A stretch of 50,423 bases of DNA from Bacteroidia bacterium (GTDB taxonomy: Bacteria; Bacteroidota; Bacteroidia; AKYH767-A; OLB10): positions 1-50,423 of the forward strand of contig JABDLV010000091.1 in assembly GCA_013001815.1 (NCBI GenBank). Direction: 5' to 3'. Both the position numbers and the translations under genes were made by a program. Below the pieces are notes generated by a model. The model was given only the letters and a program-made list of their open reading frames with translations, had not been told where the DNA came from and searched no databases. The stretch's first letter is position 1, and every line of letters begins with the position of its first letter. Shown here piece after piece: positions 19,247 to 37,263 of this stretch.

Positions 19247-20692
19247 ATGGTATTTAGTTCACCCATATTTATTTTTCTATTCTTACCGCTTGTACTTTTA
19301 GTGTACTTTTTGCTGAAAGGAACAGCAAGAAAAAATCTGTGTTTACTTGTATTTAGTTTACTGTTTTATTTCTGGGGAGAAACCTATTTGGTATTACTGA
19401 TGTTGCTTTCCATTGGGTTAAATTATTTTTTCGGAATACAAATTGATAAGCAAAAAGACGGTAAAAGAAAAAAGCAGGTTTTATTAATGGGAGTTGCAAT
19501 TAATCTTCTAATATTAATTTCATTCAAGTATGCCAATTTTATAGTAGATAATTTAAATACAATTTTGGTGCAATTGAGTTTTTCACCAATTCATCTTAAA
19601 TCTATTCACTTACCCATAGGGATTTCATTCTTTACATTTCAAAGCATGTCATATATAATTGATGTGTATAGAAATACCAATAAAGTATCCAGAAGCCTTA
19701 CCAATGTGGCATTATATATCTCTCTATTTCCGCAATTAATTGCGGGGCCTATTGTTCGATATCATGATGTAGCGGGGCAAATTATTGATAGAAATATAAA
19801 AGTTGAATTATTTGCAGCCGGGGCAAAAAGATTTATAATTGGTTTAGCAAAAAAAGTTTTAATTGCTAACACGGTTGCACGGGTGGCAGATCATATTTTT
19901 GATTTGCCAATTGGAGAACATACTATTGCTGTAGCCTGGTTAGGTGCTGTTGCCTATTCATTGCAAATTTATTTTGATTTTTCCGGTTACTCTGATATGG
20001 CGATTGGATTAGGCAACATGTTTGGATTTAAATTTCCTGAAAATTTTAACTACCCATACATTTCTAAATCAATAAAAGAATTTTGGCGCAGATGGCACAT
20101 ATCATTGTCATCATGGTTTAGAGACTACTTATATATTCCACTGGGAGGAAACAGAATAAATGCAAGCAGAACTTATTTTAATCTGATAACCGTTTTCTTT
20201 TTAACCGGTTTGTGGCATGGAGCAAGCTGGAGCTTTGTGGTTTGGGGATTATATCATGGTTTCTTTTTAATCCTTGAAAGAATTGGCTTGGAACGTGCAT
20301 TAAACAAAGTTGGATTTTTTGTTGGCAATGCATATGCATTAGTAGTGGTGATAATTGGTTGGGTATTTTTCAGAGCAGATAACTTTCCATATGCCTGGAG
20401 CTATTTAAAAGCAATGTTTGGATTAGATAATCCGTCAAAAGAGAAATTCAATTTTGCTTATTACATGGATAATGAAATTGCATTAACACTAATTGCAGGT
20501 ATCGTTCTGTCCATGCCCTTATTTTTTAAATTAAAAACATTGAGAGCGAAATTGTTTAATGTTATTCCCGGTACTATATTTCAAATGAGTTTGAATGGCC
20601 TAATTACTGTGTTATACATTGTGTTATTCATTTGGTCTGTAATTTATATTTCAAGTGATACGTACAACCCATTTATTTATTTTAGATTTTAA
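19247..20692 (+). CDS. MBOAT-family membrane O-acyltransferase (AlgI/DltB-like), copy 1
   Basis: Motifs FFTFQSMSYIIDVY, FPQLIAGPIVR, RRWHISLSSWFRDYLYIPLGG and GLWHGASW. ATG 19247 (MVFSSPIFIFLF) is preferred over the TTG at 19217. Confidence 0.85.
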   Translation: MVFSSPIFIFLFLPLVLLVYFLLKGTARKNLCLLVFSLLFYFWGETYLVLLMLLSIGLNYFFGIQIDKQKDGKRKKQVLLMGVAINLLILISFKYANFIVDNLNTILVQLSFSPIHLKSIHLPIGISFFTFQSMSYIIDVYRNTNKVSRSLTNVALYISLFPQLIAGPIVRYHDVAGQIIDRNIKVELFAAGAKRFIIGLAKKVLIANTVARVADHIFDLPIGEHTIAVAWLGAVAYSLQIYFDFSGYSDMAIGLGNMFGFKFPENFNYPYISKSIKEFWRRWHISLSSWFRDYLYIPLGGNRINASRTYFNLITVFFLTGLWHGASWSFVVWGLYHGFFLILERIGLERALNKVGFFVGNAYALVVVIIGWVFFRADNFPYAWSYLKAMFGLDNPSKEKFNFAYYMDNEIALTLIAGIVLSMPLFFKLKTLRAKLFNVIPGTIFQMSLNGLITVLYIVLFIWSVIYISSDTYNPFIYFRF

Positions 20693-21834
20693 TGATGAAT
20701 GTAAAGAACATATTGACTTATGCTTTCGTGGTGCTCTTTATTGCAGTTCTCCTTATCCCCTTGTTGCGTTCATTTAGTTCAGTTAATGATAGCACTGCTT
20801 GGATGGAAAAAAGAGAAGTTGCTGAGTTTCCTTCGTTACAATTCAACAAACTGGATAAATTCCCAAAGCAGTTCAACGCATTTTTTAATGATCATCTAGG
20901 CTTTAGAAAGTATATCATGCTGGCGAATGGCATCATTAAAAATGACTTATTCAATGTAAGTAGTAGACCTGATAAGGTAATTAAGGGAAAAGATGGTTGG
21001 TTGTATTTGGCACGAGACGATTTTAATGAAGATTATTATATGAACGTGAATCCTTTCACAGAAAATAATTTGAATGCAGTTTGTGAAGAGATACAAAGGA
21101 GAAAAGACATTTTAGCTGAACTAAATATAGAATACTATCTGTTTATGCTACCAAGTAAACATCACGTATACCCTGAAAATTTACCCGATAATATTAATCA
21201 ACTTGATACCATAAGTAGATTGGATCAATTTATGAATCACATGCAAAGCGATTACAATGTGAATGTGATAAATACTCTAGATACCGTAATTCAAACGAAA
21301 TCAGATACAGCCTATTTTTATGATAAGGATACCCATTGGAATTTACATGGTGCAGCATTCGTTTACACAGTTATGATGGATGAGTTGAAAAAGAGATATT
21401 CCGATTTGAATATTCTGAACTGTATGAGTTGGGAAAGAAAAACTACTGTAATTGAACATCAAGGGGATTTGTCTTTATTAATGGGCAGGTACGATTATAA
21501 AATGAAGAATAATGTGGTAACTGTTCCTCCGTCAGATTTTAAAGTGAATTATGAAAGTGTTGCAGTTGGAGAACTTCCTGAAAAAGATAAATTCTTGGCA
21601 GCACCAGAGCGGTTTGTGTCCAATGATTCGCTCGCACCAAAAGTTGTGGTGATGCATGATTCTTTTGCTACATTGCTAAAGAAATTTATGGCAACGGGTT
21701 TTTCAGAATCATTGTTTGTATGGACACACGAGTTTACACCGGAAATTATTGAACAAGAGAAACCTCAAATAGTAATTGAACTGATGGCCGAACGATTTTT
21801 AACTCAATTGCAAGAAAAAGAAATAGAAAAATAA
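20692..21834 (+). CDS. AlgJ/AlgX-like SGNH-type periplasmic O-acyltransferase partner (N-terminal TM anchor), copy 1
   Basis: Motifs EFP...FNAFFNDHLGFR, KDGWLYL, LPSKHHVYPENLP and DKDTHWNLHGA, then VVVMHDSF...IVIELMAERF near the C-terminus. The start overlaps the MBOAT stop (TAATG). Confidence 0.65.
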   Translation: MMNVKNILTYAFVVLFIAVLLIPLLRSFSSVNDSTAWMEKREVAEFPSLQFNKLDKFPKQFNAFFNDHLGFRKYIMLANGIIKNDLFNVSSRPDKVIKGKDGWLYLARDDFNEDYYMNVNPFTENNLNAVCEEIQRRKDILAELNIEYYLFMLPSKHHVYPENLPDNINQLDTISRLDQFMNHMQSDYNVNVINTLDTVIQTKSDTAYFYDKDTHWNLHGAAFVYTVMMDELKKRYSDLNILNCMSWERKTTVIEHQGDLSLLMGRYDYKMKNNVVTVPPSDFKVNYESVAVGELPEKDKFLAAPERFVSNDSLAPKVVVMHDSFATLLKKFMATGFSESLFVWTHEFTPEIIEQEKPQIVIELMAERFLTQLQEKEIEK

Positions 21835-21835
21835 C

Positions 21836-23287
21836 ATGCTCTTTAATTCATTTGAGTTTTTTATTTTTTTTCCAATTGTAATTTGGATTTATTTCATTAC
21901 TCCTTCAAAGTATAGGTGGGTATGGCTGTTATCTGTCAGCTACTATTTTTATATGTGCTGGAAGTCTGCCTACATTATATTGATAGCCACATCAACATTG
22001 GTAGATTACTTCGCAGGAATCTATATTCATCAATCGAAAACAAAAAGTAGGCGAAAGCTGCTTTTGTACTTGAGTCTATTTGTAAACCTTGGTTTATTAT
22101 TTGTTTTTAAGTATTTAGATTTCTTTAATGATACCATTGGTTCTGTATTTAATCAGTTCAATATATTTTATGATGTGCCAGCGTATAATTTTTTATTACC
22201 CGTTGGGATATCATTCTACACATTTCAAACTTTAAGTTATACCATTGATGTATATAAAGGCAGAATAGAACCTGAAAGACATTTAGGACGTTTTGCTTTA
22301 TATGTTTCATTTTTCCCGCAGTTGGTAGCTGGTCCAATTGAGCGAGCAACAAGATTATTACCTCAATTTAAAAAGGTGCATACATTCGATTACAATAGAG
22401 TGAAAAATGGCTTGCTCTTAATTTTGTGGGGACTGTTTAAAAAAGTGGTAATAGCAGATAGGGTTTCGGAATATGTAAATACGGTGTATAATAATCCGGG
22501 AATGTATTCAGGTTTGCAAAGTATTCTTGCAACCTACTTTTTTGCCTTTCAGATCTACTGTGACTTCTCCGGGTATTCTGACATTGCCATTGGAGCTGCA
22601 TTGGTATTGGGTTATGAGTTAATTGTAAATTTTAAACGTCCCTATTTTTCAAGAACATTTAAAGAAGTATTCAATCGCTGGCATATTTCACTTTACAATT
22701 GGTTTAGAGATTACGTATATGTTCCACTAGGGCTCAAGTTTCGGTCTAAATTTTTTAGACAGGCAATATTAGTATTGGTGTTTTTACTTACCGGTTTATG
22801 GCATGGTGCAGAATGGACATTTGTTTTGTGGGGTGGATTGTGTGCCCTCATTATTGTACTTGGAACGCTCACACAAAAATTAAGAAATAATTTATTTGAT
22901 AGAGCAGGAATTAAACGCAGTAATAAATTTAGAATTATATATGATGTAGTCATTACATTCCATTTTTGCTTTTTAGTATTCATCATGTTTAGAGCACAAT
23001 CCGTATCTCATTTTGTAGATATGGTTGCAAGTATGTTTCATATTGATTTTGCATCTCAATTCACAAACATAAATTTATTCTTAGTGCCGGCAGATATGGC
23101 AATTGGTGTGGTGAGTATTTTGTTTCTATTAGGAATTGAATTATTGCAGGAGAAATATGGTTCTAAGAAACTATTTTATTCCATGGTGCCAAGATGGGGT
23201 AGGTGGACATTTGTAGGAATGATTATAATGAGCATTATACTATTTGGAAAATTTGATAATGTTGACTTTTTATATTTTCAATTTTAG
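21836..23287 (+). CDS. MBOAT-family membrane O-acyltransferase, copy 2
   Basis: Motifs MLFNSFEFFIFF, FYTFQTLSYTIDVY, FPQLVAGPIER, NRWHISLYNWFRDYVYVPLG and GLWHGAEW. It starts 1 nt after the upstream stop. Confidence 0.85.
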   Translation: MLFNSFEFFIFFPIVIWIYFITPSKYRWVWLLSVSYYFYMCWKSAYIILIATSTLVDYFAGIYIHQSKTKSRRKLLLYLSLFVNLGLLFVFKYLDFFNDTIGSVFNQFNIFYDVPAYNFLLPVGISFYTFQTLSYTIDVYKGRIEPERHLGRFALYVSFFPQLVAGPIERATRLLPQFKKVHTFDYNRVKNGLLLILWGLFKKVVIADRVSEYVNTVYNNPGMYSGLQSILATYFFAFQIYCDFSGYSDIAIGAALVLGYELIVNFKRPYFSRTFKEVFNRWHISLYNWFRDYVYVPLGLKFRSKFFRQAILVLVFLLTGLWHGAEWTFVLWGGLCALIIVLGTLTQKLRNNLFDRAGIKRSNKFRIIYDVVITFHFCFLVFIMFRAQSVSHFVDMVASMFHIDFASQFTNINLFLVPADMAIGVVSILFLLGIELLQEKYGSKKLFYSMVPRWGRWTFVGMIIMSIILFGKFDNVDFLYFQF

Positions 23288-23289
23288 TG

Positions 23290-24315
23290 ATGAAGGAAAA
23301 AGGACTTAAATATGGAATATATGCTGCAGGTGTTGCTTGCTTGCTGATATTTGTATTGGTGCGTTTAACAAATGTTCCTGCATCGCTGGTTGTAGACTTA
23401 GACAATACAGGTGATTTGTACAGGCAGAACTATATTGATTTGTTTAAAGAGGAATTGCCAGCAAAATCCATTGCGTTTAATCAGTCACCTAAACACGCCT
23501 CTATAGATGACGCAGAGATATTAATTTTTGGTGATTCATTCTTTAATTTTAGAAGGCATAAGTCGGTGCCGGAGTATGTTGCAGACAGTTTAAATAAAAA
23601 AGTATTTTTTCACAAGGACTATAGTGTAAAGGATGTGCTTGCGGGTGCTAATTTTGATGGAGATAATAAAAAGCTGTTGATTTTTGAATTAGCCGAAAGA
23701 GGTATTACCATAAAATTTGGGCCTGATATAGTTGAATCTAAAAAGTTTGAGTTTGATTTGTTTACGCAATTGGATACAACCTTCTTTTCAGAAAAATATA
23801 ATAAGCGTTATCGATATTTATTGGAAAGAAGTAAACTGTCACACAACGTTTATTCCTCTTTAAATACTTTTAATTTTAATGCGTTTAAAAGCATTAGCAG
23901 CTTCACTCCCGTGTATACAAAAGAACCGGCTTGTCTGTTTTATGGTAAGACAGTGAATAATAAACCCGGGAGTTATAATTTTAATTATTCGCCTGCACTT
24001 ATAAATTTTTATTCTGATAATATATTGGATTGGAAGAATGAAATAGAACAAAAGTATAATGTAGAAGTACTGTTTTATTTCATTCCTAATAAGTCTTCTG
24101 TTTATCACGAGAAAATTAGCAATGAAGGGTACAATAATTTTCTTCCTAGGTTAAGCACTGCGCTTAATGCAAGAGGGGTGAAGCACATAAGCATGTATGA
24201 AGAGTTTGAGGCTGCTGAAGAAATATTATACTACCCTACAGATACTCATTGGAATGATGCCGGAACTAAAATGGGAGCAGAAAAACTTATTAAATATTTA
24301 AGAACGAATAATTAG
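23290..24315 (+). CDS. SGNH/DHHW-type O-acyltransferase partner, copy 2 (motif order permuted relative to copy 1)
   Basis: N-terminal TM anchor. ILIFGDSF...LLIFELAERG lies near the N-terminus, followed by FYFIPNKSSVYHE and YYPTDTHWNDAG near the C-terminus. The start is ATG 23290 (or GTG 23287, which overlaps the MBOAT stop). Confidence 0.55.
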   Translation: MKEKGLKYGIYAAGVACLLIFVLVRLTNVPASLVVDLDNTGDLYRQNYIDLFKEELPAKSIAFNQSPKHASIDDAEILIFGDSFFNFRRHKSVPEYVADSLNKKVFFHKDYSVKDVLAGANFDGDNKKLLIFELAERGITIKFGPDIVESKKFEFDLFTQLDTTFFSEKYNKRYRYLLERSKLSHNVYSSLNTFNFNAFKSISSFTPVYTKEPACLFYGKTVNNKPGSYNFNYSPALINFYSDNILDWKNEIEQKYNVEVLFYFIPNKSSVYHEKISNEGYNNFLPRLSTALNARGVKHISMYEEFEAAEEILYYPTDTHWNDAGTKMGAEKLIKYLRTNN

Positions 24316-26198
24316 ACTCGTATATCAAAGTGAGTCGACATCAAGGTTAAATTAGGACTGTAAGACGGGTCGTGTTCAATGTATTTTTTCCAATGCTCTT
24401 TAAAATATTTCACAGCATGTAAGTGTTTTTTATGGGACTCTTCACTTGCATGTGGATTCCCTCTTGACAAAGACTCATAGTGATACAATTCTACATTAGG
24501 CAGATAAACATTTCTGTATCCAGCTTCTAGTACTCGCAAACAGAAATCTACATCATTAAATTCAACCGGTAATTTTTCTTCAAAACCATTAACCTGCTCA
24601 AATTTTTCTTTTTTTATCATTAAACAAGCTGCGGTAACTGCACTATAGTTGTTAATGGACTTAATCGCATAAAAATATCCATCATCATTTGCTTCTTTTC
24701 CAATAAAGGTATGTCCGGCAATACCGCCAAGCCCTATTACTGTTCCGGAGTGCTGTATGGTGCCATTTGGATATAGTAATTTTGCACCCACTGCACCAAT
24801 ATCCTTTAGCTGGGCAAACTCAAGCATGTTTTGAATCCAGTTAGGTGTAATAACCTCCATGTCATTATTCAATAGCAGCACAAAATCACCACTGCTTCTC
24901 TTTACACCAACATTCATTAGCGTAGAAAAATTAAACTCTATGGAAAGTCGAATGGCCTGAAACCTATCATTTAAGTTTGACTTGTATTGATCTGTTAGCT
25001 TATGAAATGATTCTTCTGTGCTGTCATTGTCAATTACGATTATTTCATAATTCTTGTAAGTGCTTTTTTCTATGATTGAATCAATGCATTTTTTTAGTAC
25101 CTCAGCTTCGTTTTTTGATGGGATTATAATACTGACCTTGTAATTTTCTTTTAATTCAGGATGTACTTCATAATAGCCCGGCATTCCTTCTTGCAATGCA
25201 ACGGTTCCATTAATTCCTCTTCGCTGAAGTGCTTCTGTTAATGCTTTTACGCCTGCTTCATAAGCATAGGGCTTTGCCGCATCGCTGTCTGTGCTAGAAT
25301 CATTGTGTATACGCCAATGATAAAGCACTTTGGGTATGTGTTTAATATTCTGAGTTCTTTCTGTAAAGCGCAAAAGTAAATCGTAATCCTGACTGCCTTC
25401 AAAACCCGTGCGCATTCCACTTAGTTCGTTCAGTATAGATTTTCTAAACACACTGAGGTGAGTGATGTAATTTCTGGCTAAAAAACTTTCCGGGCTCCAG
25501 TCAGGTTTAAAATACGGATTGCCCGTATTTCCTCTTGCATCTACAAAGTCTTCATCCGAATAAATCAAATCGTGTGTTTGATCAGCATTTAGTTCTTTTA
25601 CAATTTCATATAAAGCTTCCGGTGCAAGCAAGTCATCATGGTCTAAAAATGCAACAAATTCACCGCTTGCAAGTTCTATGGCATCATTAGTGTTCGCAGA
25701 GATATGTCCATTTTCACTTCTGAAATTCAGCTTCACTTTACTATTGCTTGCTTTGATTTGCTTTAGGTATTCAATTACTCCCGGAATGGTAGAATAATCG
25801 TCAGAAATACAAAGTTCCCAGTTCTCATATATCTGATTGAATACAGAATCACAACATTGTTCTAAAAATTTGAGGTTACTGTTATAAACCGGCAATACAA
25901 TGCTTATTAATGGCTGATACTTGAAATTAGGTATGAGTTTTTTATATTCTTTTAAATCAGATGCAGTGGGGGAGTTGAATCGTTTCCATTCTTTGTATCC
26001 GCTGCTATCAAATAAATTAATACCCAGCGTTTTTCTAACTACATAGCGCGCTGTTTTATGAAGCATTCTGCTCCCTCTTTCATAAGCCTTTTTTTTAAAT
26101 AAAAAAGAAACAACTCTTCTTGGAGTAACATCTTTCATATCAACCGGAGTTTTTGAAAGTGTTAATTCAGAAATTGCTTTTTGAATGAGTCTTTTCAT
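24312..26198 (-). CDS. Bifunctional glycosyltransferase with two GT2 domains
   Basis: Two GT-A modules are present: ISIVLPVYNS...FLDHDD and VSIIIPSKNE...IIVIDNDST...LLLNNDME. Confidence 0.85.
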   Translation of the reverse strand: MKRLIQKAISELTLSKTPVDMKDVTPRRVVSFLFKKKAYERGSRMLHKTARYVVRKTLGINLFDSSGYKEWKRFNSPTASDLKEYKKLIPNFKYQPLISIVLPVYNSNLKFLEQCCDSVFNQIYENWELCISDDYSTIPGVIEYLKQIKASNSKVKLNFRSENGHISANTNDAIELASGEFVAFLDHDDLLAPEALYEIVKELNADQTHDLIYSDEDFVDARGNTGNPYFKPDWSPESFLARNYITHLSVFRKSILNELSGMRTGFEGSQDYDLLLRFTERTQNIKHIPKVLYHWRIHNDSSTDSDAAKPYAYEAGVKALTEALQRRGINGTVALQEGMPGYYEVHPELKENYKVSIIIPSKNEAEVLKKCIDSIIEKSTYKNYEIIVIDNDSTEESFHKLTDQYKSNLNDRFQAIRLSIEFNFSTLMNVGVKRSSGDFVLLLNNDMEVITPNWIQNMLEFAQLKDIGAVGAKLLYPNGTIQHSGTVIGLGGIAGHTFIGKEANDDGYFYAIKSINNYSAVTAACLMIKKEKFEQVNGFEEKLPVEFNDVDFCLRVLEAGYRNVYLPNVELYHYESLSRGNPHASEESHKKHLHAVKYFKEHWKKYIEHDPSYSPNLTLMSTHFDIRV

Positions 26199-26213
26199 GA
26201 AGGGAGATAAAAA

Positions 26214-27836
26214 CTATTTAGAAAAAAGATTAGCAATTTTTTTAATCGTGCTATTATTTTTGATTGCTTTAAGTGCAGGTATATTTTGATATTTGCTCAG
26301 GTTCGTAGTAAGTTGATCAATTATGCCTTGTCTTTCAATGCACAGGCTTTCTAATTCGGCATAATTTTTTACCATTTTCGGTATTAGTTGCTCTATGTTT
26401 GATTTATACAATTCAATATGCTTTCTGCATACATAAGAAACTATTTTTTCTCTGTTCTCCGGTTTGTTGCTATTGGTAACCATTGATTGATCTTTTACCC
26501 GATAATCAAATAGAAATTTATCAATATGATGAAATTTCCAACCATGTTTATGAAGGTTAATCCAGGTTTCCCAATCTTCATAACCCAATTTCATGCTTTC
26601 ATCAAATCCACCTATTTGGTCAAGGGCTTCTTTTCTAACAACGGTGCAGGCATCAATATAGTTTTGATTTAGAAGTTCGGTGATTTCAAAATCTTTTACG
26701 GTTCTCATGAGAGAATGCTCACCAAAGAACCTTGGGTTGGCATAAACCACTGCAGTTTTATCATCCCTCTCCATTATTTCAATCGCCTCTAAAATATATC
26801 TTGTGTCCGCCTTATTATCAGCATCTAGAAATAGTATGTACTTACCCTTGCTAGCTTTTATTCCTGAATTTCGAGCATTGGATAAGCCTCCATTGATTTG
26901 ATTAATAACCTGAATATTACTTTCATTTATACTATCCAGTATTTCAATCGTAGTGCTATCTGTAGATCCATCATTTACAATGATAATATCATCAATAGTA
27001 TTTGTACTTGTTCTTAAGGCATAAAGTGCCTCATCTAAATAATGACCTTGATTATAACAAGGTATAATAACCGAAATTAAATTACTTAATGCAGTAGTTG
27101 ACTTCGCATCAAATTTCAATGCACTCATATTATGCAATGACTCTAATAGTTCTTTGTTTTTACTTTCTGAGAAAAATTCATTTCTCAACTTTGGTATATA
27201 CTCTCTTGAAATAGGTTCAGGTGTATAAAAAGAATAATCGCGGGCTTTTTGTCTATCTAATTTGTACCCCCATTTCTGGTGCAACAATTCTGCAACTTTA
27301 TACGGCTCTTGAATAAATGCATTGCTGCTTATCAATATTGATTTTTCCGAATTGGATTTAGCAAATTCAAGTATGTGTGAGTTGTACCAATTCCATATGT
27401 CATATACATACTGAGGGTTTTGCTCAATGATGGAATTGCCCGATTGAATTAGCGCCTGCTTTACTTCCCATGGATTTTGATACACTAATATAAAGTTGGC
27501 ATTTGGTAGGAGTGTTGAATAAAAATCAAGTGTAATTGCAGAATTTGGACTATGCCATGCTAAATTATTGGGTTGATGTGTGAATAGACTCTTTCCTACT
27601 GAGTGGAAACTTTCAATCTTTGCATAATTGAATTTTAGATCCTCGGTATATCCCCAGTCCGGTATTCCTTTGTGTCCACCTTTGCAGGCAGACCTATTTA
27701 TTTTGGTTTGAAAACTGTTAAGCGCTTTTTCAGAATTGACATCAAAATGAAATCCTGCAGATTGCAAGTATCTGGAAATTGCATCAGTGCCCGAACCATG
27801 CATACCTGTGATTATAAGTGGAGCATTAGTTGGCAT
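26214..27836 (-). CDS. Fusion protein: N-terminal sulfotransferase-like P-loop domain + C-terminal GT2 glycosyltransferase
   Basis: N-terminal LIITGMHGSGTDAISRYL is 5'-PSB-like and ILVYQNPWEVKQAL is 3'-PB-like but degenerate. The C-terminal half has ISVIIPCYNQGHYLDEAL, IIIVNDGSTD and LFLDADN. The GT2 half is secure; the sulfotransferase call is tentative. Confidence 0.6.
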   Translation of the reverse strand: MPTNAPLIITGMHGSGTDAISRYLQSAGFHFDVNSEKALNSFQTKINRSACKGGHKGIPDWGYTEDLKFNYAKIESFHSVGKSLFTHQPNNLAWHSPNSAITLDFYSTLLPNANFILVYQNPWEVKQALIQSGNSIIEQNPQYVYDIWNWYNSHILEFAKSNSEKSILISSNAFIQEPYKVAELLHQKWGYKLDRQKARDYSFYTPEPISREYIPKLRNEFFSESKNKELLESLHNMSALKFDAKSTTALSNLISVIIPCYNQGHYLDEALYALRTSTNTIDDIIIVNDGSTDSTTIEILDSINESNIQVINQINGGLSNARNSGIKASKGKYILFLDADNKADTRYILEAIEIMERDDKTAVVYANPRFFGEHSLMRTVKDFEITELLNQNYIDACTVVRKEALDQIGGFDESMKLGYEDWETWINLHKHGWKFHHIDKFLFDYRVKDQSMVTNSNKPENREKIVSYVCRKHIELYKSNIEQLIPKMVKNYAELESLCIERQGIIDQLTTNLSKYQNIPALKAIKNNSTIKKIANLFSK

Positions 27837-28599
27837 GTACTTTCGTTTTGTTTACCGGAAATAGGTTTTCGTAAAAAGAAATTACTTCATCAATTTGGCC
27901 CACCTTAACCACTTTGCCATCTTGCAAACAAGCTGCTTTATTGCAAATTCTACGTAATTCATCTGTACTATGCGTTACATATACAATGGTGCTTCCTTGT
28001 TTTCTTATTTCGTCTATTCGTTTAGCACATTTTTCTCTAAATCCTCTGTCCCCTACGGAAAGCGCCTCATCAACAATGAGAACCTCGGGTGTATTAGCCA
28101 CGGCAATACTAAAAGCAAGTCTCGACATCATGCCAGTAGAGTATCTTTTTACCTGCATGTTTATTGACTGTTCATTCAGTTCCGAAAAGGCAATAATATT
28201 TTTTAATGATTCTTCATACTCATCTTTTGTATACCCAATGAGTGTGCAAAGAAGTTTTATGTTTTCCAAGCCGCTTAGTTCCGGTTCTAATCCCACGCCT
28301 AATGCAAGCATTGGTGCAACCTTCCCTCTTACGGTTATTTCGCCACTATCTTGTTCTATAATTCCGGCAACAGCTCTTAGTAAAGTGCTCTTTCCAGATC
28401 CGTTTTTGCCAATCAAGCCAAAACAATCTCCTTTTTCAATTTGCAGATTAATATCATGAAGCACTTTTTTCTTTTCAAATAGTTTTTTCATGCCTAAACT
28501 CAAGAGCCATTGCTTCACAGAATTAATGCCGTAGCTCTGTACTAAAAAGCTAAAGTTTAAATTCTTTATATCAATAATTATTTCGTTGTTCTCTTGCAT
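27826..28599 (-). CDS. Polysaccharide-export ABC transporter ATP-binding protein (Wzt/TagH/KpsT-like, short form)
   Basis: Walker A GKNGSGKST, signature YSTGMMSRL and Walker B VLIVDEAL. The protein is 257 aa, with no C-terminal carbohydrate-binding extension. Confidence 0.85.
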   Translation of the reverse strand: MQENNEIIIDIKNLNFSFLVQSYGINSVKQWLLSLGMKKLFEKKKVLHDINLQIEKGDCFGLIGKNGSGKSTLLRAVAGIIEQDSGEITVRGKVAPMLALGVGLEPELSGLENIKLLCTLIGYTKDEYEESLKNIIAFSELNEQSINMQVKRYSTGMMSRLAFSIAVANTPEVLIVDEALSVGDRGFREKCAKRIDEIRKQGSTIVYVTHSTDELRRICNKAACLQDGKVVKVGQIDEVISFYENLFPVNKTKVHAN

Positions 28600-28600
28600 T

Positions 28601-29392
28601 TTAATAATAAGATATAAATCCTGCTCTAAATTTTTTATACGTTCTCATTCCTATGATTACCACTATCAAACTTAGTACTGTAGCTATTATTGCCGAGTTT
28701 AGCTCTGGCAATTCATTGTAATACAATACAGATTTTATCATCGTAAAATAATGATACAGTGGATTTAATTTTAATAGATATATGTATTGTGGTGGTATTA
28801 GCTGAAATGAATAAACAATGGGTGTAAAATAAAATAGGGCGGGTATTAATGAGGTCCAAAGCATTTCTACATCCCTAAAAAACACATTAAGAGTAGCAAG
28901 CGTTAAAGACACACCAAATAAAAACAAACACAGCAATGCAATAATGGGAAATATTAATAGATTCACCCATGAAAAAGTAAATCCTAACAATACCATAATG
29001 ATCATAAACGGCACCAATGAAAGCAAGAAGATAATCAATCCGGAAATGAGTGTAGATATTGGAAAGATTAAAGGAGATATGTTCATTGATTTTAGTATTC
29101 CCTTATTGGAAGTGATAGAGGTAAGCATTTGATTCGATGTAGTACTGAAGAACACCCAAAATATTAAACCTGTTAATGCAAACAGCGGGTAATTTTTAAT
29201 GTCGGGGAATACATTGCTAAAAACGATAGAGAATACAATCAAATAAATCAATGGATTAATCATGCTCCAAAAAATTCCGAGAAAAGAATTTTTGTACCGC
29301 ACTTTTACATCCTTCACGGCAACAGCAAGAACTAAATTGAAATTGCTTTTAATTTTAGCTGTTTTATGGCTTTTGTCGGCTGTAATACTCAT
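28601..29392 (-). CDS. ABC-2 type polysaccharide-export permease (Wzm/TagG-like)
   Basis: About 6 TM helices. It lies immediately upstream of the ATPase gene (1-nt gap) and has typical ABC-2 length and topology. Confidence 0.8.
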   Translation of the reverse strand: MSITADKSHKTAKIKSNFNLVLAVAVKDVKVRYKNSFLGIFWSMINPLIYLIVFSIVFSNVFPDIKNYPLFALTGLIFWVFFSTTSNQMLTSITSNKGILKSMNISPLIFPISTLISGLIIFLLSLVPFMIIMVLLGFTFSWVNLLIFPIIALLCLFLFGVSLTLATLNVFFRDVEMLWTSLIPALFYFTPIVYSFQLIPPQYIYLLKLNPLYHYFTMIKSVLYYNELPELNSAIIATVLSLIVVIIGMRTYKKFRAGFISYY

Positions 29393-29422
29393 CTACGTTA
29401 ATATGTGCATTTGAAAGGTGGG

Positions 29423-29460
29423 CAAAATTAATGATTTTGGGCAATTGCCCCTTAATTTTG
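29423..29460. promoter_or_regulatory. Divergent promoter region: two opposed TAATTTTG (-7-type) boxes flanking a perfect 12-bp palindrome GGGCAATTGCCC
   Basis: CAAAATTA at 29423-29430 reads TAATTTTG on the minus strand and lies about 30 nt from the wzm-like ATG. TAATTTTG at 29453-29460 on the plus strand lies about 29 nt from the TTG start at 29490. The palindrome is at 29439-29450. No well-spaced -33 TTG was found for either box. Confidence 0.45.
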
Positions 29461-29489
29461 TTATTTGCGCCCTAGAATAGCCTAATTCA

Positions 29490-30407
29490 TTGGAAAACCC
29501 GAAGGTATATATAATAATAGTCCATTTTGGCCAGGTAAGCGACACGGTGGCCTGCGTAGAATCTGTTTTAAAGCAGAATGCGAATTACGAGAAAATTGTA
29601 ATTGTCAATAATAGTGAGAATGAGGTTGATTGGAAAAAGCAGCTGAATGATCAATCTGGAAAATTGGAATTTATTATAACTGAAGCAAATAATGGATATG
29701 CATTTGCATGCAATACGGGTATGCAATTTGTGAGCAAAAATTACAATCCGGATTACTACTGGATATTGAATAATGATACGGAAGTGGATGAAGTCAGTTT
29801 AAAAACATTGTTGAATTGTGCTTCTGATAAAATAAACACTGGATTAATCGGGTCTAAAATATATCACATCAATAAAAGAAATGTATTGCAAGGTGTAGCC
29901 GGTGCATATAATAAAGTGCTGTGCGTAACCAAACATGTTGGTAAAGGAGAAACAGATAATGGTCAATTTGACGAGGGTAAATTTTCATTTGATTACCCCT
30001 TAGGTGTTTCGCTTTTTGTGCGAAAAGCATTTGTTGATGAAGTAGGAATGATGAGTGATGACTACTTTATTTATTTTGAAGAATTGGATTGGGCTTATCG
30101 CGCAAAGAAAACGAAGTGGGATGTGGGCATTTGCACCGCATCAAAGATTTATCATAAGGGAGGGGCCAGCACTGGAGCAATGAAAGAAAACAGAAATGCT
30201 AAATCTGCATTGTCTGATTTTCATGCAATAAGAAGTAGGGTTTTGTTTACGAACAAATACTTGAAAATGTATAAGCCATTTTTGTACCTGTTTTTGGGTA
30301 TTCTTTTTTTTGAAATGTTATTAAGGGGCAAAGCGCACCGAATAAAAATGATTTTTCGCTTATTAAAAAATCCAGAATTAAATTACGTTGAAGGGGAGTA
30401 TAGGTAA
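29490..30407 (+). CDS. GT2-family glycosyltransferase (rhamnosyltransferase-like)
   Basis: Motifs VYIIIVHFGQ, IVIVNNSENE and WILNNDTEV. There is an in-frame stop at 29478-29480 and no ATG before residue ~78, so the start must be TTG at 29490. Confidence 0.8.
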   Translation: MENPKVYIIIVHFGQVSDTVACVESVLKQNANYEKIVIVNNSENEVDWKKQLNDQSGKLEFIITEANNGYAFACNTGMQFVSKNYNPDYYWILNNDTEVDEVSLKTLLNCASDKINTGLIGSKIYHINKRNVLQGVAGAYNKVLCVTKHVGKGETDNGQFDEGKFSFDYPLGVSLFVRKAFVDEVGMMSDDYFIYFEELDWAYRAKKTKWDVGICTASKIYHKGGASTGAMKENRNAKSALSDFHAIRSRVLFTNKYLKMYKPFLYLFLGILFFEMLLRGKAHRIKMIFRLLKNPELNYVEGEYR

Positions 30408-30500
30408 GCACTGGTATTTAATAAGTTCTCTAAGCTGCCTGGTTTTAATTGAATTAATTATAATATCTTCGATACCGATTATAAAAAAGCAATAGAAATT

Positions 30501-31640
30501 TTGAAAGTTGCATTTGTACATGATTGGTTCTCTAAAGTTGGGGGTTCTGAAAAAGTAGCCAGAGAAATCATAAGTCTATATCCCGAATGTGATGTTTTTA
30601 CACTTGTAAATTTTTTAGAGGGAAAAGAAAAGGTAGACATTTTGCAAGGACATGATCCCAAAGTGTCATTCATTCAAAAACTACCAAGAGCTAAGGATAA
30701 GCATCAGTACTACTTGCCAATTTTTCCATACGCAATAGAGAAGTTTGATTTATCGGAATATGATTTAATCCTTTCTTCTTCACACGCAGTTTCTAAGGGC
30801 GTTTTAACAAACGCAAATCAAATACATGTTTGTTACTGCCATACACCAATGCGATATGCATGGGATTTGTATCATCAATATTTAAAACTAACCGGATTAA
30901 ACACGGGAATAAAATCTTTATTCGTAAAGCACACTTTAAATCGATTGCGAAATTGGGATCAACTTAGTTCACAACGAGTAGATTACTTTGTGGCTAACTC
31001 GTATTACGTTGGCAAAAGAATTAAAAAGAACTACGGAAGAGATTCGCATGTAATATACCCACCGGTTGATATTGATAAATTTAATTTACAGGAAGAGAAG
31101 AAGGACTACTACATGACTATGTCCAGAATGGTTCCTTACAAACGTATGGATTTAGTGGTAGAAGCTTTTTCTAAGATGCCGGATAAAAAGTTAATTGTGA
31201 TAGGTGATGGCCCTGATTTCAAAAAAATACAAAACCTCACCAAAGGATGTGATAATATTACCATGTTGGGCTATCAGCCAAATGAAACAGTGAAGAAATA
31301 CATGGAAGGCGCGAAAGCCTTTGTGTTTGCTGCGGATGAAGATTTCGGAATAACATCTATTGAAGCACAAGCCTGTGGAACTCCTGTGATTACTTATGGT
31401 AAGGGAGGATCTTTAGAAACTGTTATCAATAATAAAACGGGCAGGTATTTTAAAGAGCAAACCGTTGAAGAAATAGTGGATGCCGTTAGAGGTTTTGAAA
31501 AAGAAGGAATTGAATTTACTCCAGCTCAAATTAGAGAGCATGCTACCAATTTTGATCGTCATCGTTTTCGATACTTGTTTAAAGAGTATGTAGATGAAGT
31601 AACTCAGAAACATGAAGTCGGAAGCGTTCAACAAGCTTAA
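30501..31640 (+). CDS. GT4-family (GT-B) glycosyltransferase
   Basis: The N-terminus MKVAFVHDWFSKVGGSEKV is typical, and the E-x7-E region is EDFGITSIEAQACGTPVI. There is an in-frame stop at 30450-30452 and no upstream ATG, which implies a TTG start at 30501. Confidence 0.85.
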   Translation: MKVAFVHDWFSKVGGSEKVAREIISLYPECDVFTLVNFLEGKEKVDILQGHDPKVSFIQKLPRAKDKHQYYLPIFPYAIEKFDLSEYDLILSSSHAVSKGVLTNANQIHVCYCHTPMRYAWDLYHQYLKLTGLNTGIKSLFVKHTLNRLRNWDQLSSQRVDYFVANSYYVGKRIKKNYGRDSHVIYPPVDIDKFNLQEEKKDYYMTMSRMVPYKRMDLVVEAFSKMPDKKLIVIGDGPDFKKIQNLTKGCDNITMLGYQPNETVKKYMEGAKAFVFAADEDFGITSIEAQACGTPVITYGKGGSLETVINNKTGRYFKEQTVEEIVDAVRGFEKEGIEFTPAQIREHATNFDRHRFRYLFKEYVDEVTQKHEVGSVQQA

Positions 31641-32877
31641 TCAGATACAATATTATTCCTTGCTAGTTTTGGCAGCATTCCCAATGATGCCAAAGAAGAT
31701 TCAGTCTATAGCAATCATTGCTTTTGTGGTAATCAGTTTTATTGGAGTAATTCAACTCAACAAAGAACTATTTAAACGAAAATTAAAATGGATTCTGTTG
31801 TTTTCATCCATTTCATTGATTTACGGAGCTCTTATATTCTTTTCTGATGATACTTCCTCGGCAGTATTTCAAACAGAAAAGCGATTAAGTCTACTGGTAA
31901 TACCTTTTGCCTTTTTATTCTGGAATTGGAAGTTGGATGTAAAGCAGTTAAATGCAATTAAAACTGTATTTGTTGCTTCTTGCTTCTTAGTGGTTCTTCG
32001 ATTACTTGGAATATTGATTTATGCAGACTTCTTTCAAGAGGCCTGGAATCATCCTAACTTTTCTTTTATGATGCGTAATGCTGCAGAGAGCATTACGGGT
32101 TTTCATCCATCCTATTTAGCGCTTTATCTTTCTTTCTCTATATGCATACTATTGCTTTGGCTTTTGTTTCCGAAACAACAATTTAAAAAGCATACAAAAG
32201 GAATGATGGTCATTGGTATTTTAGTGTTCGTAATACTAATTTGGCTATTGGCTGCACGAATGCCCTTATTAGGCTTGTTTATTGCATTATTAACGATGGC
32301 GTTTTGGAAAGCGGCTAACATTAAAAAGTTTGCCCTAGTAACTGTTGTATTAATGGCAGTGTTGTTTGCAGCTGTATTCTTTTCTCCTTCTTTAAAACAA
32401 AGAAGCATGCAATTATTTAACAGTGGATTTAATATGCCTGCCGATGAAGATTTTAATGATACGAATGTGAGGTTGGCAATTTATACTTGCTCGCTTAAGC
32501 TATTAAAAGAAAACTGGTATAGCGGTTACCAACCGGGTGATGTGTATCAACACTTGAATGAATGTTATGAAAGTACTTTTAAATCTGATAAGCTAAGAGA
32601 GAAAAATTTTAACACACATAATGAGTACTTCAATATTTGGTTAGGTTGTGGTATTATTGGCTTTGCATTATTTTTAATGATGTTATTCTTGCCATTGAAG
32701 ATGGCATTGCGTGCAGATGAGAAACTATATGTGTTGTTTTTAATTTTATTTATGGTGAGCTGTCTTACGGAAAATGTATTATCCAGACAACATGGAATGG
32801 TGTTTTATGCAATACTAAATTCAATGCTATTTTTCAATAGAGTATTGCCAGCTAGTTATTCATCACGTACTCAATAA
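31612..32877 (+). CDS. O-antigen ligase/polymerase-family (Wzy_C-type) integral membrane protein
   Basis: At least 10 hydrophobic helices, a periplasmic-loop region, and the motif THNEYFNIWLGCGIIGF. The start may be a later Met (31684). Confidence 0.7.
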   Translation: MKSEAFNKLNQIQYYSLLVLAAFPMMPKKIQSIAIIAFVVISFIGVIQLNKELFKRKLKWILLFSSISLIYGALIFFSDDTSSAVFQTEKRLSLLVIPFAFLFWNWKLDVKQLNAIKTVFVASCFLVVLRLLGILIYADFFQEAWNHPNFSFMMRNAAESITGFHPSYLALYLSFSICILLLWLLFPKQQFKKHTKGMMVIGILVFVILIWLLAARMPLLGLFIALLTMAFWKAANIKKFALVTVVLMAVLFAAVFFSPSLKQRSMQLFNSGFNMPADEDFNDTNVRLAIYTCSLKLLKENWYSGYQPGDVYQHLNECYESTFKSDKLREKNFNTHNEYFNIWLGCGIIGFALFLMMLFLPLKMALRADEKLYVLFLILFMVSCLTENVLSRQHGMVFYAILNSMLFFNRVLPASYSSRTQ

Positions 32878-35981: not shown

Positions 35982-36518
35982 TTAACGTTTGTGAATAGCT
36001 GGCGAATTCTCATAAATCTGTACCAGCTCATTTCCTTCAAAGGCTTTTTTCATGCTATCCACAAAACTTTCTTGTTCTTCCTCTCCTAATTCAGAGAGGG
36101 TAAAGCAGAAATCTACTTCTCCTTCACGTCCCCAGGGCATGTCTTCAAAGGCCACCTCTATTTCTGTATTTTCTTGATTTTCAGACATACATCTGTCCAT
36201 TATATTTCTGGCTTTCGGATCAACACCGGCTCCCCAGCTTATAAATGATATTATAATGCGGTATTCTTGTTCTCCTTCGTTCATTTTGTTTGCTTCATCT
36301 CTATTTTCAATAACTTCTTCCACCTCATTTGCTGCTTCTTCTACAATTCCCTCTGTTTTAGTTTTAATTCCGCCTTCTTCTCTATATACACTTCCTTTGC
36401 CGGGAGTAAGTTCAACCTTCTCATTTTCAGCCTTTTCTGCTGTTTCTTTGCTGGATTTGCACGCATTCATTCCGAAAATGAGCGCAGCGGTTATAAATAA
36501 GCTAAGTAATGTCTTCAT
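35982..36518 (-). CDS. Hypothetical lipoprotein with Glu-rich linker
   Basis: Lipobox GMNAC, a low-complexity E/K-rich region, then a compact C-terminal domain (ISFISWGAGVD...PWGREGEVDFCF). Confidence 0.6.
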   Translation of the reverse strand: MKTLLSLFITAALIFGMNACKSSKETAEKAENEKVELTPGKGSVYREEGGIKTKTEGIVEEAANEVEEVIENRDEANKMNEGEQEYRIIISFISWGAGVDPKARNIMDRCMSENQENTEIEVAFEDMPWGREGEVDFCFTLSELGEEEQESFVDSMKKAFEGNELVQIYENSPAIHKR

Positions 36519-36558
36519 AATTGGTTTTTTCTTTTTGACGGGCTAAAGGTAAATAAGT

Positions 36559-37263
36559 TTATTTATCTCTATAAGGGAAAGTTTTGCTGAATTTTTTGGT
36601 CAGGTGTTCTATCATTTCATTTGCCCGAACGTTATAATCTGTTGCACGAACATATTTGTCTTTATATAATAAAGTGCCATCCGAGCCATTAAATAGAGAA
36701 CATTCCGCCCTAATATCATGTGTTTTAGAAATTCCATATGGAACAGGAGAAACGCCATATGGAGGATAACCCATAACACCTTCTAATATATCAACTCCTA
36801 AATCAATACCAAAAGATGCCAAGTCAGACATATACCTTGTTTTTTCCACTTTGCTTTGAATCACTGCATCAACACCCAAAGTTTTTGCTAAACTCTCCGG
36901 TGTCTCTGTCCAAGATTGTCTAATGCTGATTTCATTTTCTTCTAAAATTCTATTTGTTCTCTCAACTGTTTGAATTGAAATTTGAATGTCTTTCTTTTTT
37001 GGACCCGACTGCTTTAATAAATTGTTGTACAGTGATATTTGAAATGCTCTGCTCTCACCATCTTCAATCTTTATTATTTGCTCTGGTGTTAAACCTTTAG
37101 GTTGCTTGCCTGAGAAAATCATTTGCACCGGTAAAACTGCAATTGTTTTGTGATTACTCGTTTTTGTTTTAAAATCATTAGAAACAAAGTCCGGTGTTGC
37201 ACAGGCACCAATTGTTAATGTAAATAGCGCAAGGATTGCATTTGAATAGTTGACTTTTTTCAT
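36559..37263 (-). CDS. Hypothetical lipoprotein (LpoB/TolB-N-like pattern, tentative)
   Basis: Lipobox TIGAC. KTIAVLPVQ and LGVDAVIQSKVEK resemble small periplasmic lipoprotein folds. The fold call is inference only. Confidence 0.55.
   Translation of the reverse strand: MKKVNYSNAILALFTLTIGACATPDFVSNDFKTKTSNHKTIAVLPVQMIFSGKQPKGLTPEQIIKIEDGESRAFQISLYNNLLKQSGPKKKDIQISIQTVERTNRILEENEISIRQSWTETPESLAKTLGVDAVIQSKVEKTRYMSDLASFGIDLGVDILEGVMGYPPYGVSPVPYGISKTHDIRAECSLFNGSDGTLLYKDKYVRATDYNVRANEMIEHLTKKFSKTFPYRDK

Follow-up and report, generated by a model that had tools for sequence, protein, structure and literature searches.

A probable ABC-transporter-dependent surface-glycan locus with two MBOAT–SGNH modules and a degenerate sulfotransferase-fold domain in a Bacteroidia genome

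In the ATP-binding cassette (ABC)-transporter-dependent paradigm of O-polysaccharide assembly, the initiating enzyme WecA lies outside the O-polysaccharide cluster, and all characterised systems with a capped chain have a Wzt ATPase that carries a carbohydrate-binding module (CBM) (PMC11231755). The listed bacterial targets of MBOAT acyltransferases are alginate, cellulose, peptidoglycan, teichoic acid and a Gram-positive wall polysaccharide, and do not include O-antigen (PMC9558356). Here we describe a locus at positions 19247–32877 of a 50,423-nucleotide stretch of DNA from an uncultured Bacteroidia bacterium (assembly GCA_013001815.1, contig JABDLV010000091.1; the whole stretch is called the window below), which an earlier note, drawn from the sequence, had taken for one envelope-glycan locus of thirteen genes in three transcription units. 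Pfam and NCBIfam assignments agree that this is one such locus, with a Wzm/Wzt-type exporter, multi-module glycosyltransferases (GTs), a Wzy_C protein and two modules made of an MBOAT and its partner. The coordinates and the unit structure are also correct, and the number of open reading frames (ORFs) has to be lowered to 11, arranged in units of four, four and three.

The genes probably make up an ABC-transporter-dependent pathway whose product is a polyprenol-linked surface glycan of the O-polysaccharide type, and this pathway would be equipped with two O-acyl relays and with a sulfotransferase (ST) domain that is dead. No part of the locus is of a new kind, and the accepted scheme of assembly for such glycans stands unchanged. 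What would be unusual is the retention of a pseudo-sulfotransferase on a polymerase subunit, the presence of two MBOAT–SGNH relays of different topology at an ABC-dependent glycan locus, and the rare canonical motif order of one of the two SGNH partners. Genes are numbered 1 to 11 along the locus, gene 5 being the dual-GT2 gene and gene 6 the ST–GT2 gene; L-numbers designate other contigs that carry relatives, and P-numbers designate homologous proteins.

Exporter, candidate polymerase and proposed chain attachment

The genes for Wzm and Wzt lie next to each other within the GT cluster, as is characteristic of ABC-dependent pathways. Among the NCBIfam models, Wzt scores best with galactan-export Wzt/RfbE (E 2e-53) and TagH (E 3e-52), and Wzm with galactan Wzm/RfbD (E 1e-27) and KpsM (E 6e-13); all four matches fall short of the equivalog cut-offs. 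As the earlier note had pointed out, Wzt is of the short form: with 257 residues it ends with its nucleotide-binding domain and has no CBM, the C-terminal module that marks the capped subclass. Its 81%-identical orthologs are also short, and orthologs are called at 238–258 residues. Export would proceed through Wzm and this short Wzt with no recognition of a terminal cap, the exporter being assigned by family and its substrate presumably being the glycan of this locus. In gene content rather than in sequence orthology, given that the NCBIfam matches stay below equivalog cut-offs, the locus resembles the cap-free ABC-dependent O-polysaccharide systems of the Klebsiella pneumoniae O2a type, with which it shares adjacent Wzm and Wzt genes, a CBM-less Wzt, cytoplasmic multi-module GTs, no need for Wzx or for a Wzy polymerase and an initiating phosphoglycosyltransferase (PGT) outside the locus. 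It differs from them in that its polymerase modules are GT2 domains related to chondroitin polymerase K4CP, in its two MBOAT–SGNH modules and in having a Wzy_C gene of its own.

The four GT-A domains and one GT-B domain that had been proposed are confirmed by Pfam and NCBIfam among the locus products, and the GTs have no transmembrane (TM)-like segments, consistent with a cytoplasmic polymerase made of the dual-GT2 protein and the GT2 domain of gene 6. The best PDB match and best solved relative of gene 5 is K4CP (PDB 2z86; E 3e-34 in two stretches), which likewise has two GT2 (GT-A) domains per chain with acidic metal-binding motifs in both. K4CP comes from a capsule (KpsMT) system, unlike gene 5, and the identity is too low for the sugars to be deduced. 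Gene 5 is a candidate disaccharide-repeat polymerase. It has at least 501 metagenomic relatives of 40–52% identity, and in the best 80 loci Wzt is encoded within the flanks in 39 and Wzm in 34. The product of gene 6 (540 residues; 26214–27836, minus strand) consists of an N-terminal sulfotransferase-like region followed by a GT2 domain, and this GT2 domain is intact, with D-A-D and YEDWE motifs in which D338/D340 and E420-D421-W422 are invariant in the alignment of relatives.

In P0004 (L007, a contig of another Bacteroidia metagenome-assembled genome, MAG) and P0121 (L094; 1161 residues), a helical linker joins the ST–GT2 module and a dual-GT2 module like gene 5 in a single protein, and the alignment shows P0004 running on from the region of the gene 6 tail into a gene-5-like GT2. 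A short Wzt, called at 238–258 residues, is encoded directly upstream of the ST–GT2 gene in five independent loci, namely the window, L004/L005, L009, L007 and L094; the L009 protein, called at 238 residues, aligns over 251. The surroundings of P0125 (L095) are uninformative as to the exporter. Because of the two fusions and of the recurrent position of the short Wzt gene, genes 5 and 6 are taken to cooperate as a single machine that goes with a short Wzm/Wzt pair, as expected of an ABC-transporter-dependent polymerase. Chain extension would fall in the cytoplasm to the dual-GT2 protein and the GT2 module of gene 6, which form one polypeptide in these relatives. The N-terminal region of gene 5, about 95 residues long, belongs to no Pfam family, is very basic and is almost invariant in three orthologs, with an apparent conservation equal to or above that of the catalytic domains; it may be a docking or membrane-association segment and possibly the contact site for the gene 6 tail.

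Synteny is conserved beyond these two genes, as the block recurs at 50–85% amino-acid identity in other metagenomic contigs. L004 keeps it from the end of gene 3 to gene 11, and L005 and L009 keep overlapping parts. The recurring order, seen in L004 and partially in L005 and L009, is Wzy_C–GT4–GT2, then Wzm–Wzt–(ST-GT2)–(GT2-GT2), then SGNH2–MBOAT2. Identity to the window is highest for GT4 (85%, in L004), Wzt (81%), Wzm (79%), MBOAT 2 (73%, in L009) and the dual-GT2 protein (68–71%), followed by the 305-residue GT2 (58–61%), SGNH partner 2 (58%), Wzy_C (55%, in L004) and ST–GT2 (49.5%). A search with gene 6 of a genome collection made up of species representatives, in which the MAG and its close relatives are absent, returned distant GT2 matches only.

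The Pfam search of all other window ORFs of at least 90 residues confirms that the window holds no PGT, nucleotide-sugar enzyme, Wzx or NusG/UpxY-like gene. From this absence the earlier note had concluded that the locus is either incomplete or uses an unrecognised route of initiation. That conclusion is not supported, because WecA lies outside the cluster in the ABC-dependent paradigm (PMC11231755), so that a locus without PGT is normal and no new route is needed. The first step would be the formation of an undecaprenyl-pyrophosphate-linked sugar by a PGT encoded elsewhere in the genome, after which adaptor sugars would be added by GT4 and by the 305-residue GT2. The latter has weak NCBIfam matches, far short of the cut-offs, to a WbbL-type rhamnosyltransferase (E 1e-12) and to GlfT1 (E 8e-5), which fit an adaptor role, and is a candidate adaptor or primer GT. 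GT4 is the most conserved gene product of the block, and its family retains 55–63% identity across Sphingobacteriia, Cytophagia, Aquificota and Desulfobacterota-like MAGs; in Mucilaginibacter sp. Bleaf8 (L096), the GT4 gene lies directly upstream of two Bac_transf PGT genes in a Wzz-type locus. This conservation across phyla, together with the adjoining PGT genes, suggests that GT4 works early in the pathway, on a lipid-linked acceptor that is itself conserved.

At least eight TM-like segments are seen in the Wzy_C protein, one loop of which contains R287 and a T-H336-N-E-Y motif. In WaaL an Arg and a His in the large periplasmic loop are essential, and the Wzy_C signature is common to WaaL, PglL and some Wzy proteins. 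The window protein thus has the Wzy_C domain, the polytopic architecture and the loop Arg and His of a WaaL-type ligase, a signature that does not separate WaaL from PglL or Wzy. In the last step of the proposed pathway it would attach the completed chain to an acceptor that is most plausibly lipid A–core. The same biosynthesis and export might instead yield a product other than the O-antigen of lipopolysaccharide (LPS), with the Wzy_C protein either using another acceptor (a protein, as in O-glycosylation by PglL, another lipid or a capsule-like polymer) or acting as a polymerase. Such an outcome would be in keeping with the shared signature, with the result that the Wzy_C protein has no NCBIfam match, at equivalog level or otherwise, and no PDB sequence match, and with a window devoid of LPS-core genes. 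Yet ABC-dependent pathways do without a Wzy polymerase and classically end in WaaL ligation (PMC11231755), and the Wzy_C gene stays beside the GT4 gene in L004; we regard this alternative as unlikely. Three points nevertheless weigh against the O-polysaccharide pathway that we favour: all that is said of the glycan product is deduced from sequence, every NCBIfam match of Wzm and Wzt stays below equivalog cut-offs, and the Wzy_C family spans ligases, polymerases and O-oligosaccharyltransferases with no NCBIfam or PDB match that fixes the final acceptor.

Two acyl modules of different topology

Each of the two acyl modules has the elements of an MBOAT–SGNH relay, that is, a catalytic His, an FxYxxF motif and an adjacent SGNH-type partner with a Ser-His-Asp triad. 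MBOAT 1, whose closest solved relative is DltB (E 4e-29), has its W-H-G motif at residues 323–325 (H324) and ends with FIYFRF; MBOAT 2, 35% identical to it in pairwise alignment, has W-H-G at residues 322–324 (His323) and ends with FLYFQF. The FxYxxF motif makes up the last six residues of both proteins and of all seven homologues whose C terminus lies inside the contig. It serves as an acetyl-Tyr shuttle, which takes up the acetyl group of acetyl-CoA and yields it to the SGNH partner (PMC12148441). DltB has no such motif and depends on DltX, DltA and DltC. In the window, the acyl group would pass from acyl-CoA to the Tyr of the MBOAT's own FxYxxF and from there to the Ser of the membrane-anchored partner, and the exported chain would be O-acylated at the periplasmic face, most likely with acetate. 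D-alanylation of the Dlt type was considered, DltB being the best NCBIfam and PDB match of the MBOATs, and was rejected: the two proteins reach 171 and 157 bits with the TIGR04091 DltB model, far short of its cut-off of 375, the MBOATs carry their own FxYxxF, DltA, DltC and DltX are not present, and Pfam and NCBIfam detect no adenylation or carrier domain in the 11 locus products.

The two partners, each with one N-terminal TM-like segment, differ in the order of their motifs. Partner 1 has Bacillus cereus PatB1 as its best PDB match (5v8d; E 1e-4), with the D-x-H-W and D-S blocks aligned, and its motifs follow one another as D213/H215, S324 and E-R367. This permuted H–S order is typical of the AlgX and DHHW families (PMC9487903), and partner 1 is predicted to be a circularly permuted SGNH O-acetyltransferase-like protein. 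Partner 2, whose gene follows that of partner 1 at a distance of 1.5 kb in the same operon, differs from the known AlgX/DHHW partners in having the D-x-H-W and E-R motifs in the canonical S…H order: G-D-S84, E137-R138 and D319-T-H321-W, an arrangement that is invariant in all nine relatives. These nine are the only homologues in a search of 5.8 billion proteins, a number limited by the word index of that search. The AlphaFold2 (AF2) model of partner 2 (predicted local distance difference test, pLDDT, of 83) matches canonical GDSL/SGNH hydrolases rather than AlgX in Foldseek, and a PDB sequence search gave nothing usable.

Alignment by hhalign places residues 187–330 of partner 2 on residues 74–224 of partner 1 (E 1e-7). 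When the columns of the partner-2 alignment are permuted, the alignment with partner 1 crosses the junction (160 versus 141 columns), the score is not higher and the Ser block is not reached. A circular permutation that relates the two partners is not proven, with one significant half and shared motifs and fold on one side, and a second half for which homology is argued from the motifs only on the other. The two partners appear to belong to a single motif family, with the permuted order in partner 1 and the canonical order in partner 2, and because the partners differ in topology the relays probably serve two positions or two sugars. The un-permuted partner 2 family could show the origin of the circular permutation in AlgX/DHHW-type acetyltransferases.

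Bacilli carry two PatA/PatB-type modules. The paired PatA/PatB genes described there act on a wall polysaccharide (PatA1/PatB1; PMC9487903), and the alignment of partner 1 to PatB1 brings the B. cereus system, with its secondary cell wall polysaccharide, close to module 1. More generally, the window modules share with PatA/PatB, AlgI/AlgJ/AlgX and B. cereus PatA1/PatB1 the MBOAT His, the Tyr of FxYxxF and a separate anchored partner with a Ser-His-Asp triad. They differ from these relays in their presumed substrate, a Bacteroidota glycan that is ABC-exported and associated with Wzy_C and so would lie outside the known MBOAT targets.

The assignment of the modules to this glycan depends on their neighbourhood. 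The earlier note had placed them with the GT and ABC genes, and the adjacency is indeed kept elsewhere: in the window, L004 and L009 alike, module 2 directly adjoins the dual-GT2 gene and is convergent with it, and four further contigs have MBOAT and/or AlgX-like genes close to GT homologues. Thus, module-1-type MBOAT genes abut gene-5 homologues in L014, L015 and L059, with an AlgX-like gene also in L014 and L059 (in L015 the MBOAT alone is found within the 50%-coverage filter), and in the cyanobacterial contig L008 a partner-1-type AlgX-like gene follows the ST–GT2 gene, with no MBOAT listed there. A partner-2-type gene lies directly 3′ of an MBOAT gene in all six contexts (window, L004, L009, L010, L011 and L012). 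The MBOAT–SGNH pair seems to behave as a portable decoration cassette, and its target in the window locus is suggested by gene adjacency. In L004 and L009, as in the window, the junction between the partner 2 and dual-GT2 genes is tightly convergent (no more than 8 bp apart); in the window itself the two genes, on the plus and minus strands respectively, overlap by 4 bp at their stop codons (24312–24315), which leaves no space for an intergenic terminator.

Alternatively, one or both modules could be mere neighbours of the glycan genes and O-acetylate a different polymer of the envelope, such as peptidoglycan, the substrate of PatA/PatB. It speaks against our assignment that homologues of module 2 occur as lone pairs among housekeeping genes in L010 and L011, where they could serve a general polymer such as peptidoglycan, and the L010 pair lies a few kb from mreBCD and a gene for a penicillin-binding protein (PBP_dimer/Transpeptidase); the canonical SGNH order of partner 2 is, moreover, that of PatB, and O-antigen is missing from the known bacterial MBOAT targets (PMC9558356). 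Against such a bystander role, the adjacency of module 2 to the dual-GT2 gene persists in the window, L004 and L009 across 42–50% protein divergence, AlgX-like and/or module-1-type MBOAT genes stand beside GT homologues in L008 (AlgX-like only), L014, L015 and L059, and the pair is once found inside a Wzx-type polysaccharide locus, in L012. On balance, we find it rather improbable that either module is unrelated to the glycan. If MBOAT–SGNH relays are recurrently linked to ABC-dependent loci, this would add to their known substrates, which are alginate, cellulose, peptidoglycan, teichoic acids and Gram-positive wall polysaccharides.

The sulfotransferase-fold domain of gene 6

The hallmarks of sulfotransferases are a Lys or Arg in the 5′-phosphosulfate-binding (PSB) loop (R-x-G in PF13469), a Ser in the 3′-phosphate-binding (PB) helix and a Glu or His base (PMC11625862), and the catalytic residues of TPST1 are R79, E100, K159 and S286 (PMC5562738). 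The match of the N-terminal region of gene 6 to Sulfotransfer_3 (PF13469) falls short of the Pfam gathering score of 27 bits, reaching 19.8 for the whole protein (E 1e-3) and 21.9 when the domain is searched by itself. The AF2 model of this region (residues 1–246; pLDDT 91.6) retrieves sulfotransferases exclusively among the best 49 PDB matches in Foldseek, CurM ST with an E value of 6e-7 and a TM-score of 0.5–0.6, and on the evidence of this model the domain has a real sulfotransferase α/β fold, in common with the 3′-phosphoadenosine 5′-phosphosulfate (PAPS)-dependent enzymes of the Sulfotransfer_3/TPST/CurM-ST kind. A PDB sequence search with the domain of the window itself gives no match, and a profile of its relatives is required. 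This profile finds CurM ST and the olefin-synthase ST (E 5e-4) and TPST1 (E 0.02), placing the R-S-G-T motif of the family on the PAPS loop, K-D-P on the KDP motif of TPST1, and R-x-P-x5-S on the 3′-phosphate-binding strand–turn–helix of CurM ST and TPST. The Lys of the family KDP motif would correspond to the catalytic K159 of TPST1 in this alignment, which is in chain numbering, and the invariant Glu of the YFED motif is presumably the catalytic base. Intact relatives keep both the R-S-G PSB loop and the R-x-P-x5-S 3′-PB motif of PAPS-dependent sulfotransferases.

The window domain departs from its family at precisely these positions. The close full-length relatives of gene 6, a handful, share the motifs G-M-H-R-S-G-T-S, N-P-x-G-Y-F-E-D, W-G-W-K-D-P-R-S and Y-R-N-P-W-E-V-K-x-S. 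In the window these read G-M-H-G-S-G-T-D, L-A-W-H-S-P-N-S and Y-Q-N-P-W-E-V-K-Q-A, and N-P-x-G-Y-F is gone through a deletion of 13 residues that sits next to the PSB helix. In window numbering the substitutions are R14G, S18D, K95H, D96S, R98N, R120Q and S128A, and E48 is replaced by Ser beside the deletion. Conservation was counted over 157 representatives of the ST family, with positions numbered as in P0003. In the PSB loop, R14 and S18 are each conserved in 147/150, and the H-R-S-G-T-S of these relatives has become H-G14-S-G-T-D18. The Glu at position 48, invariant in 152/152, is Ser in the window; the K-D-P-R motif has lost its Lys (K110, conserved in 151/154) to His95 and its Arg (R113, 154/154) to Asn. 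At the 3′-phosphate site, Gln120 stands for an Arg found in 154/154 (R135) and Ala128 for a Ser found in 145/154 (S143). Scaffold positions are retained by comparison: G-M-H, S-G-T, W94, P97, Y119, P122-W123, W148 and Y151-N152 are all present.

Accelerated divergence is confined to the ST domain. Against four outgroups, the ST domain of the window has 27–37% identity and that of its sister P0003 40–47%, whereas the GT2 domains of the same polypeptides reach 40–53% and 40–51%, respectively; relative to the L004 ortholog, gene 6 is 64% identical in GT2 and 42% in the ST domain. The same degenerate domain is encoded by a second, independent MAG contig, L093 (GCA_018680215.1, JAHHJN010000268.1), which matches window positions 23316–30407 without gaps at 99.79% nucleotide identity. 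The degeneration is thus no assembly error, because the second MAG shows the same state, nor is the block an assembly artefact, given this gap-free match. The two copies differ by 15 single-nucleotide polymorphisms and no indels; ten of the 15 are in wzt and wzm, eight of these ten being synonymous, and 15 are too few for a selection test on the ST domain.

It is very probable that the ST domain of gene 6 does not transfer sulfate. Unlike PAPS-dependent sulfotransferases, it lacks the PSB Arg, the 3′-PB Arg and Ser, the KDP Lys and the conserved Glu, has the 13-residue deletion and scores below the Pfam threshold. It would be a pseudoenzyme that leaves the glycan unsulfated and is probably kept for a structural reason, as part of the GT complex. 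Two considerations argue against inactivity: the ORF is intact and its domain models confidently, which implies some constraint on it, and atypical PSB motifs exist in some sulfotransferases, so that lost family-typical residues are no strict proof (PMC11625862). An active domain that decorates the repeat units of a doubly O-acylated and sulfated ABC-exported glycan is nonetheless very unlikely: the genuine fold, the intact ORF in two MAGs, the intact family members that exceed the Sulfotransfer_3 threshold and, weakly and probably by coincidence, a SulP-family permease gene 8 kb away speak for it, and against it stand the loss of the PSB Arg, the PB-strand Arg, the PB-helix Ser, both the Lys and the Arg of KDPR and the invariant Glu, the deletion, the divergence concentrated in this very domain, the sub-threshold Pfam score and the absence from the window, in Pfam scans, of PAPS-synthesis genes. 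The "possibly sulfated" glycan of the earlier note accordingly loses its basis, every family-invariant PAPS-binding or catalytic residue being gone, and a sulfotransferase match in a glycan locus need not mean a sulfated glycan. As a loose precedent, an ABC-dependent O-antigen cluster of Aeromonas salmonicida has a gene with a sulfotransferase domain and a product free of sulfate (PMC4483657).

In an exhaustive profile search the family to which the domain belongs proves large, the number of cluster representatives rising from 856 at E ≤ 1e-30 to 12,146 at E ≤ 1e-10. Among 46 long members, 43 have GT2 domains and 36 have above-threshold Sulfotransfer_3 matches (best E 1e-26). The system had been called undescribed, which is right in that its parts are experimentally uncharacterised and wrong in that they belong to such large recurrent families, this one and that of the dual-GT2 protein. 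Stand-alone Sulfotransfer_1 genes also occur in relatives, at 16659–17591 of L012, in the Wzx-type locus with the MBOAT and partner-2 pair, and at 2110–2904 of L006, directly after an ST–GT2 gene. Relatives whose enzymes are intact may combine sulfation with MBOAT acylation.

The architecture of the fused relatives invites comparison with the terminator–coiled-coil–polymerase proteins of capped systems (E. coli O9a WbdD/WbdA; K. pneumoniae O12 WbbB and O7 ORF6; PMC11231755). Like the O7/O12 format, P0004 and P0121 have an N-terminal non-GT modifying domain, a helical linker and two C-terminal GT2 modules. Unlike in the capped systems, the modifying domain has an ST fold, which was not found among characterised terminators in the literature searched, a GT2 domain separates it from the linker, the associated Wzt proteins are all short, and the window ST domain is degenerate. 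The large, uncharacterised ST–GT2 family beside short Wzm/Wzt raises the question of whether sulfation there is a decoration or a chain cap. A bolder reading, which we put forward tentatively and hold to be improbable as a whole, is that ST–GT2, linker and dual-GT2 beside short Wzm/Wzt form a widespread uncharacterised class in which an intact ST domain would be a sulfate-cap terminator that operates with no CBM on Wzt, the window would be a variant with a dead terminator kept as scaffold, and an O-antigen-type glycan would for the first time be the substrate of MBOAT–SGNH relays, one of which has a non-permuted AlgX/DHHW relative as its partner.

Features and surroundings of the locus

The features of the locus are collected in Table 1. 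Unit 2 and unit 3 diverge from an intergenic region for which bidirectional promoters are presumed from the gene arrangement. A scan for sigma-70 promoters and terminators gave counts equal to those of shuffled sequence, the sigma-70 model not being applicable to Bacteroidota.

Table 1. Coordinates of the locus features in the window, with strand and basis of assignment (aa, residues).
Feature	Position	Strand	Basis and remarks
Unit 1	19217/19247–24315	+	Four genes
MBOAT 1	19247–20692 (ATG 19247, 481 aa; ORF opens with TTG 19217)	+	Pfam MBOAT, E 5e-30, 105 bits against a cut-off of 27
Partner 1	20692–21834	+	Pfam ALGX, E 4e-22; AlgX/DHHW-type, N-terminally anchored
MBOAT 2	21836–23287 (483 aa)	+	Pfam MBOAT, E 2e-26, 93 bits against a cut-off of 27
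Partner 2	23287–24315	+	Pfam ALGX on residues 248–340 only; N-terminally anchored, canonical-order SGNH
Unit 2	24312–29392	-	Four genes
Gene 5, dual-GT2	24312–26198 (628 aa)	-	Two Glycos_transf_2 stretches, E 1e-49
Gene 6, C-terminal tail	26214–26426 (about 70 aa)	-	Looks helical/amphipathic; linker to the dual-GT2 module in relatives
Gene 6, GT2 domain	26427–27080 (aa ~253–470)	-	Pfam Glycos_transf_2, E 1e-28
Gene 6, ST-fold domain	27102–27836 (aa 1–245)	-	AF2, Foldseek and family alignment
Wzt-type ABC ATPase, short	27826–28599 (257 aa)	-	Pfam ABC_tran, E 2e-21
Wzm-type ABC-2 permease	28601–29392 (263 aa)	-	Pfam ABC2_membrane, E 2e-16
Intergenic region, wzm/GT2 gene	29393–29489 (97 bp)		Divergent; bidirectional promoters presumed
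Unit 3	29490–32877	+	Three genes
GT2	29490–30407 (305 aa)	+	Pfam Glycos_transf_2, E 1e-9
GT4 (GT-B)	30501–31640 (379 aa)	+	Pfam Glycos_transf_1, E 4e-30
Wzy_C/O-antigen-ligase-family polytopic membrane protein	31612–32877 (421 aa)	+	Pfam Wzy_C, E 8e-16, 58.6 bits against a cut-off of 31.7

In composition, the comparison of the locus with its flanks gives a mixed result: GC content is lower in the locus than in the remaining window (34.0% versus 36.4%; per-gene Mann–Whitney p = 0.0025), and GC at third codon positions does not differ. The scan of the window for tRNA genes found none and hence no integration-site signal. With GC only 2.4 points lower, the same third-position GC, no mobile-element genes and no tRNA, a recent horizontal acquisition is not supported.

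The locus is flanked by housekeeping genes, upstream by hisS, a histidine ammonia-lyase-type (Lyase_aromatic) gene and a gene for a trypsin-like protease, and downstream by a DUF4159 gene, an RsmE-type RNA methyltransferase (Methyltrans_RNA/PUA_4) gene and the gene for PEPCK. The SulP-family permease (Sulfate_transp and STAS domains) is encoded at 41185–42783, 8 kb downstream of the locus, and nothing ties it to the glycan genes. Several ORFs of 165–234 residues have no Pfam match (35982–37263, 2041–2538, 6231–6809, 40477–41037 and 46608–47111). The window also encodes a subtilase with a type IX secretion system sorting domain, in confirmation of its Bacteroidota origin, and, in tandem on the minus strand at 3314–4192 and 4397–5305, two paralogous outer-membrane proteins of the Omp28 family.

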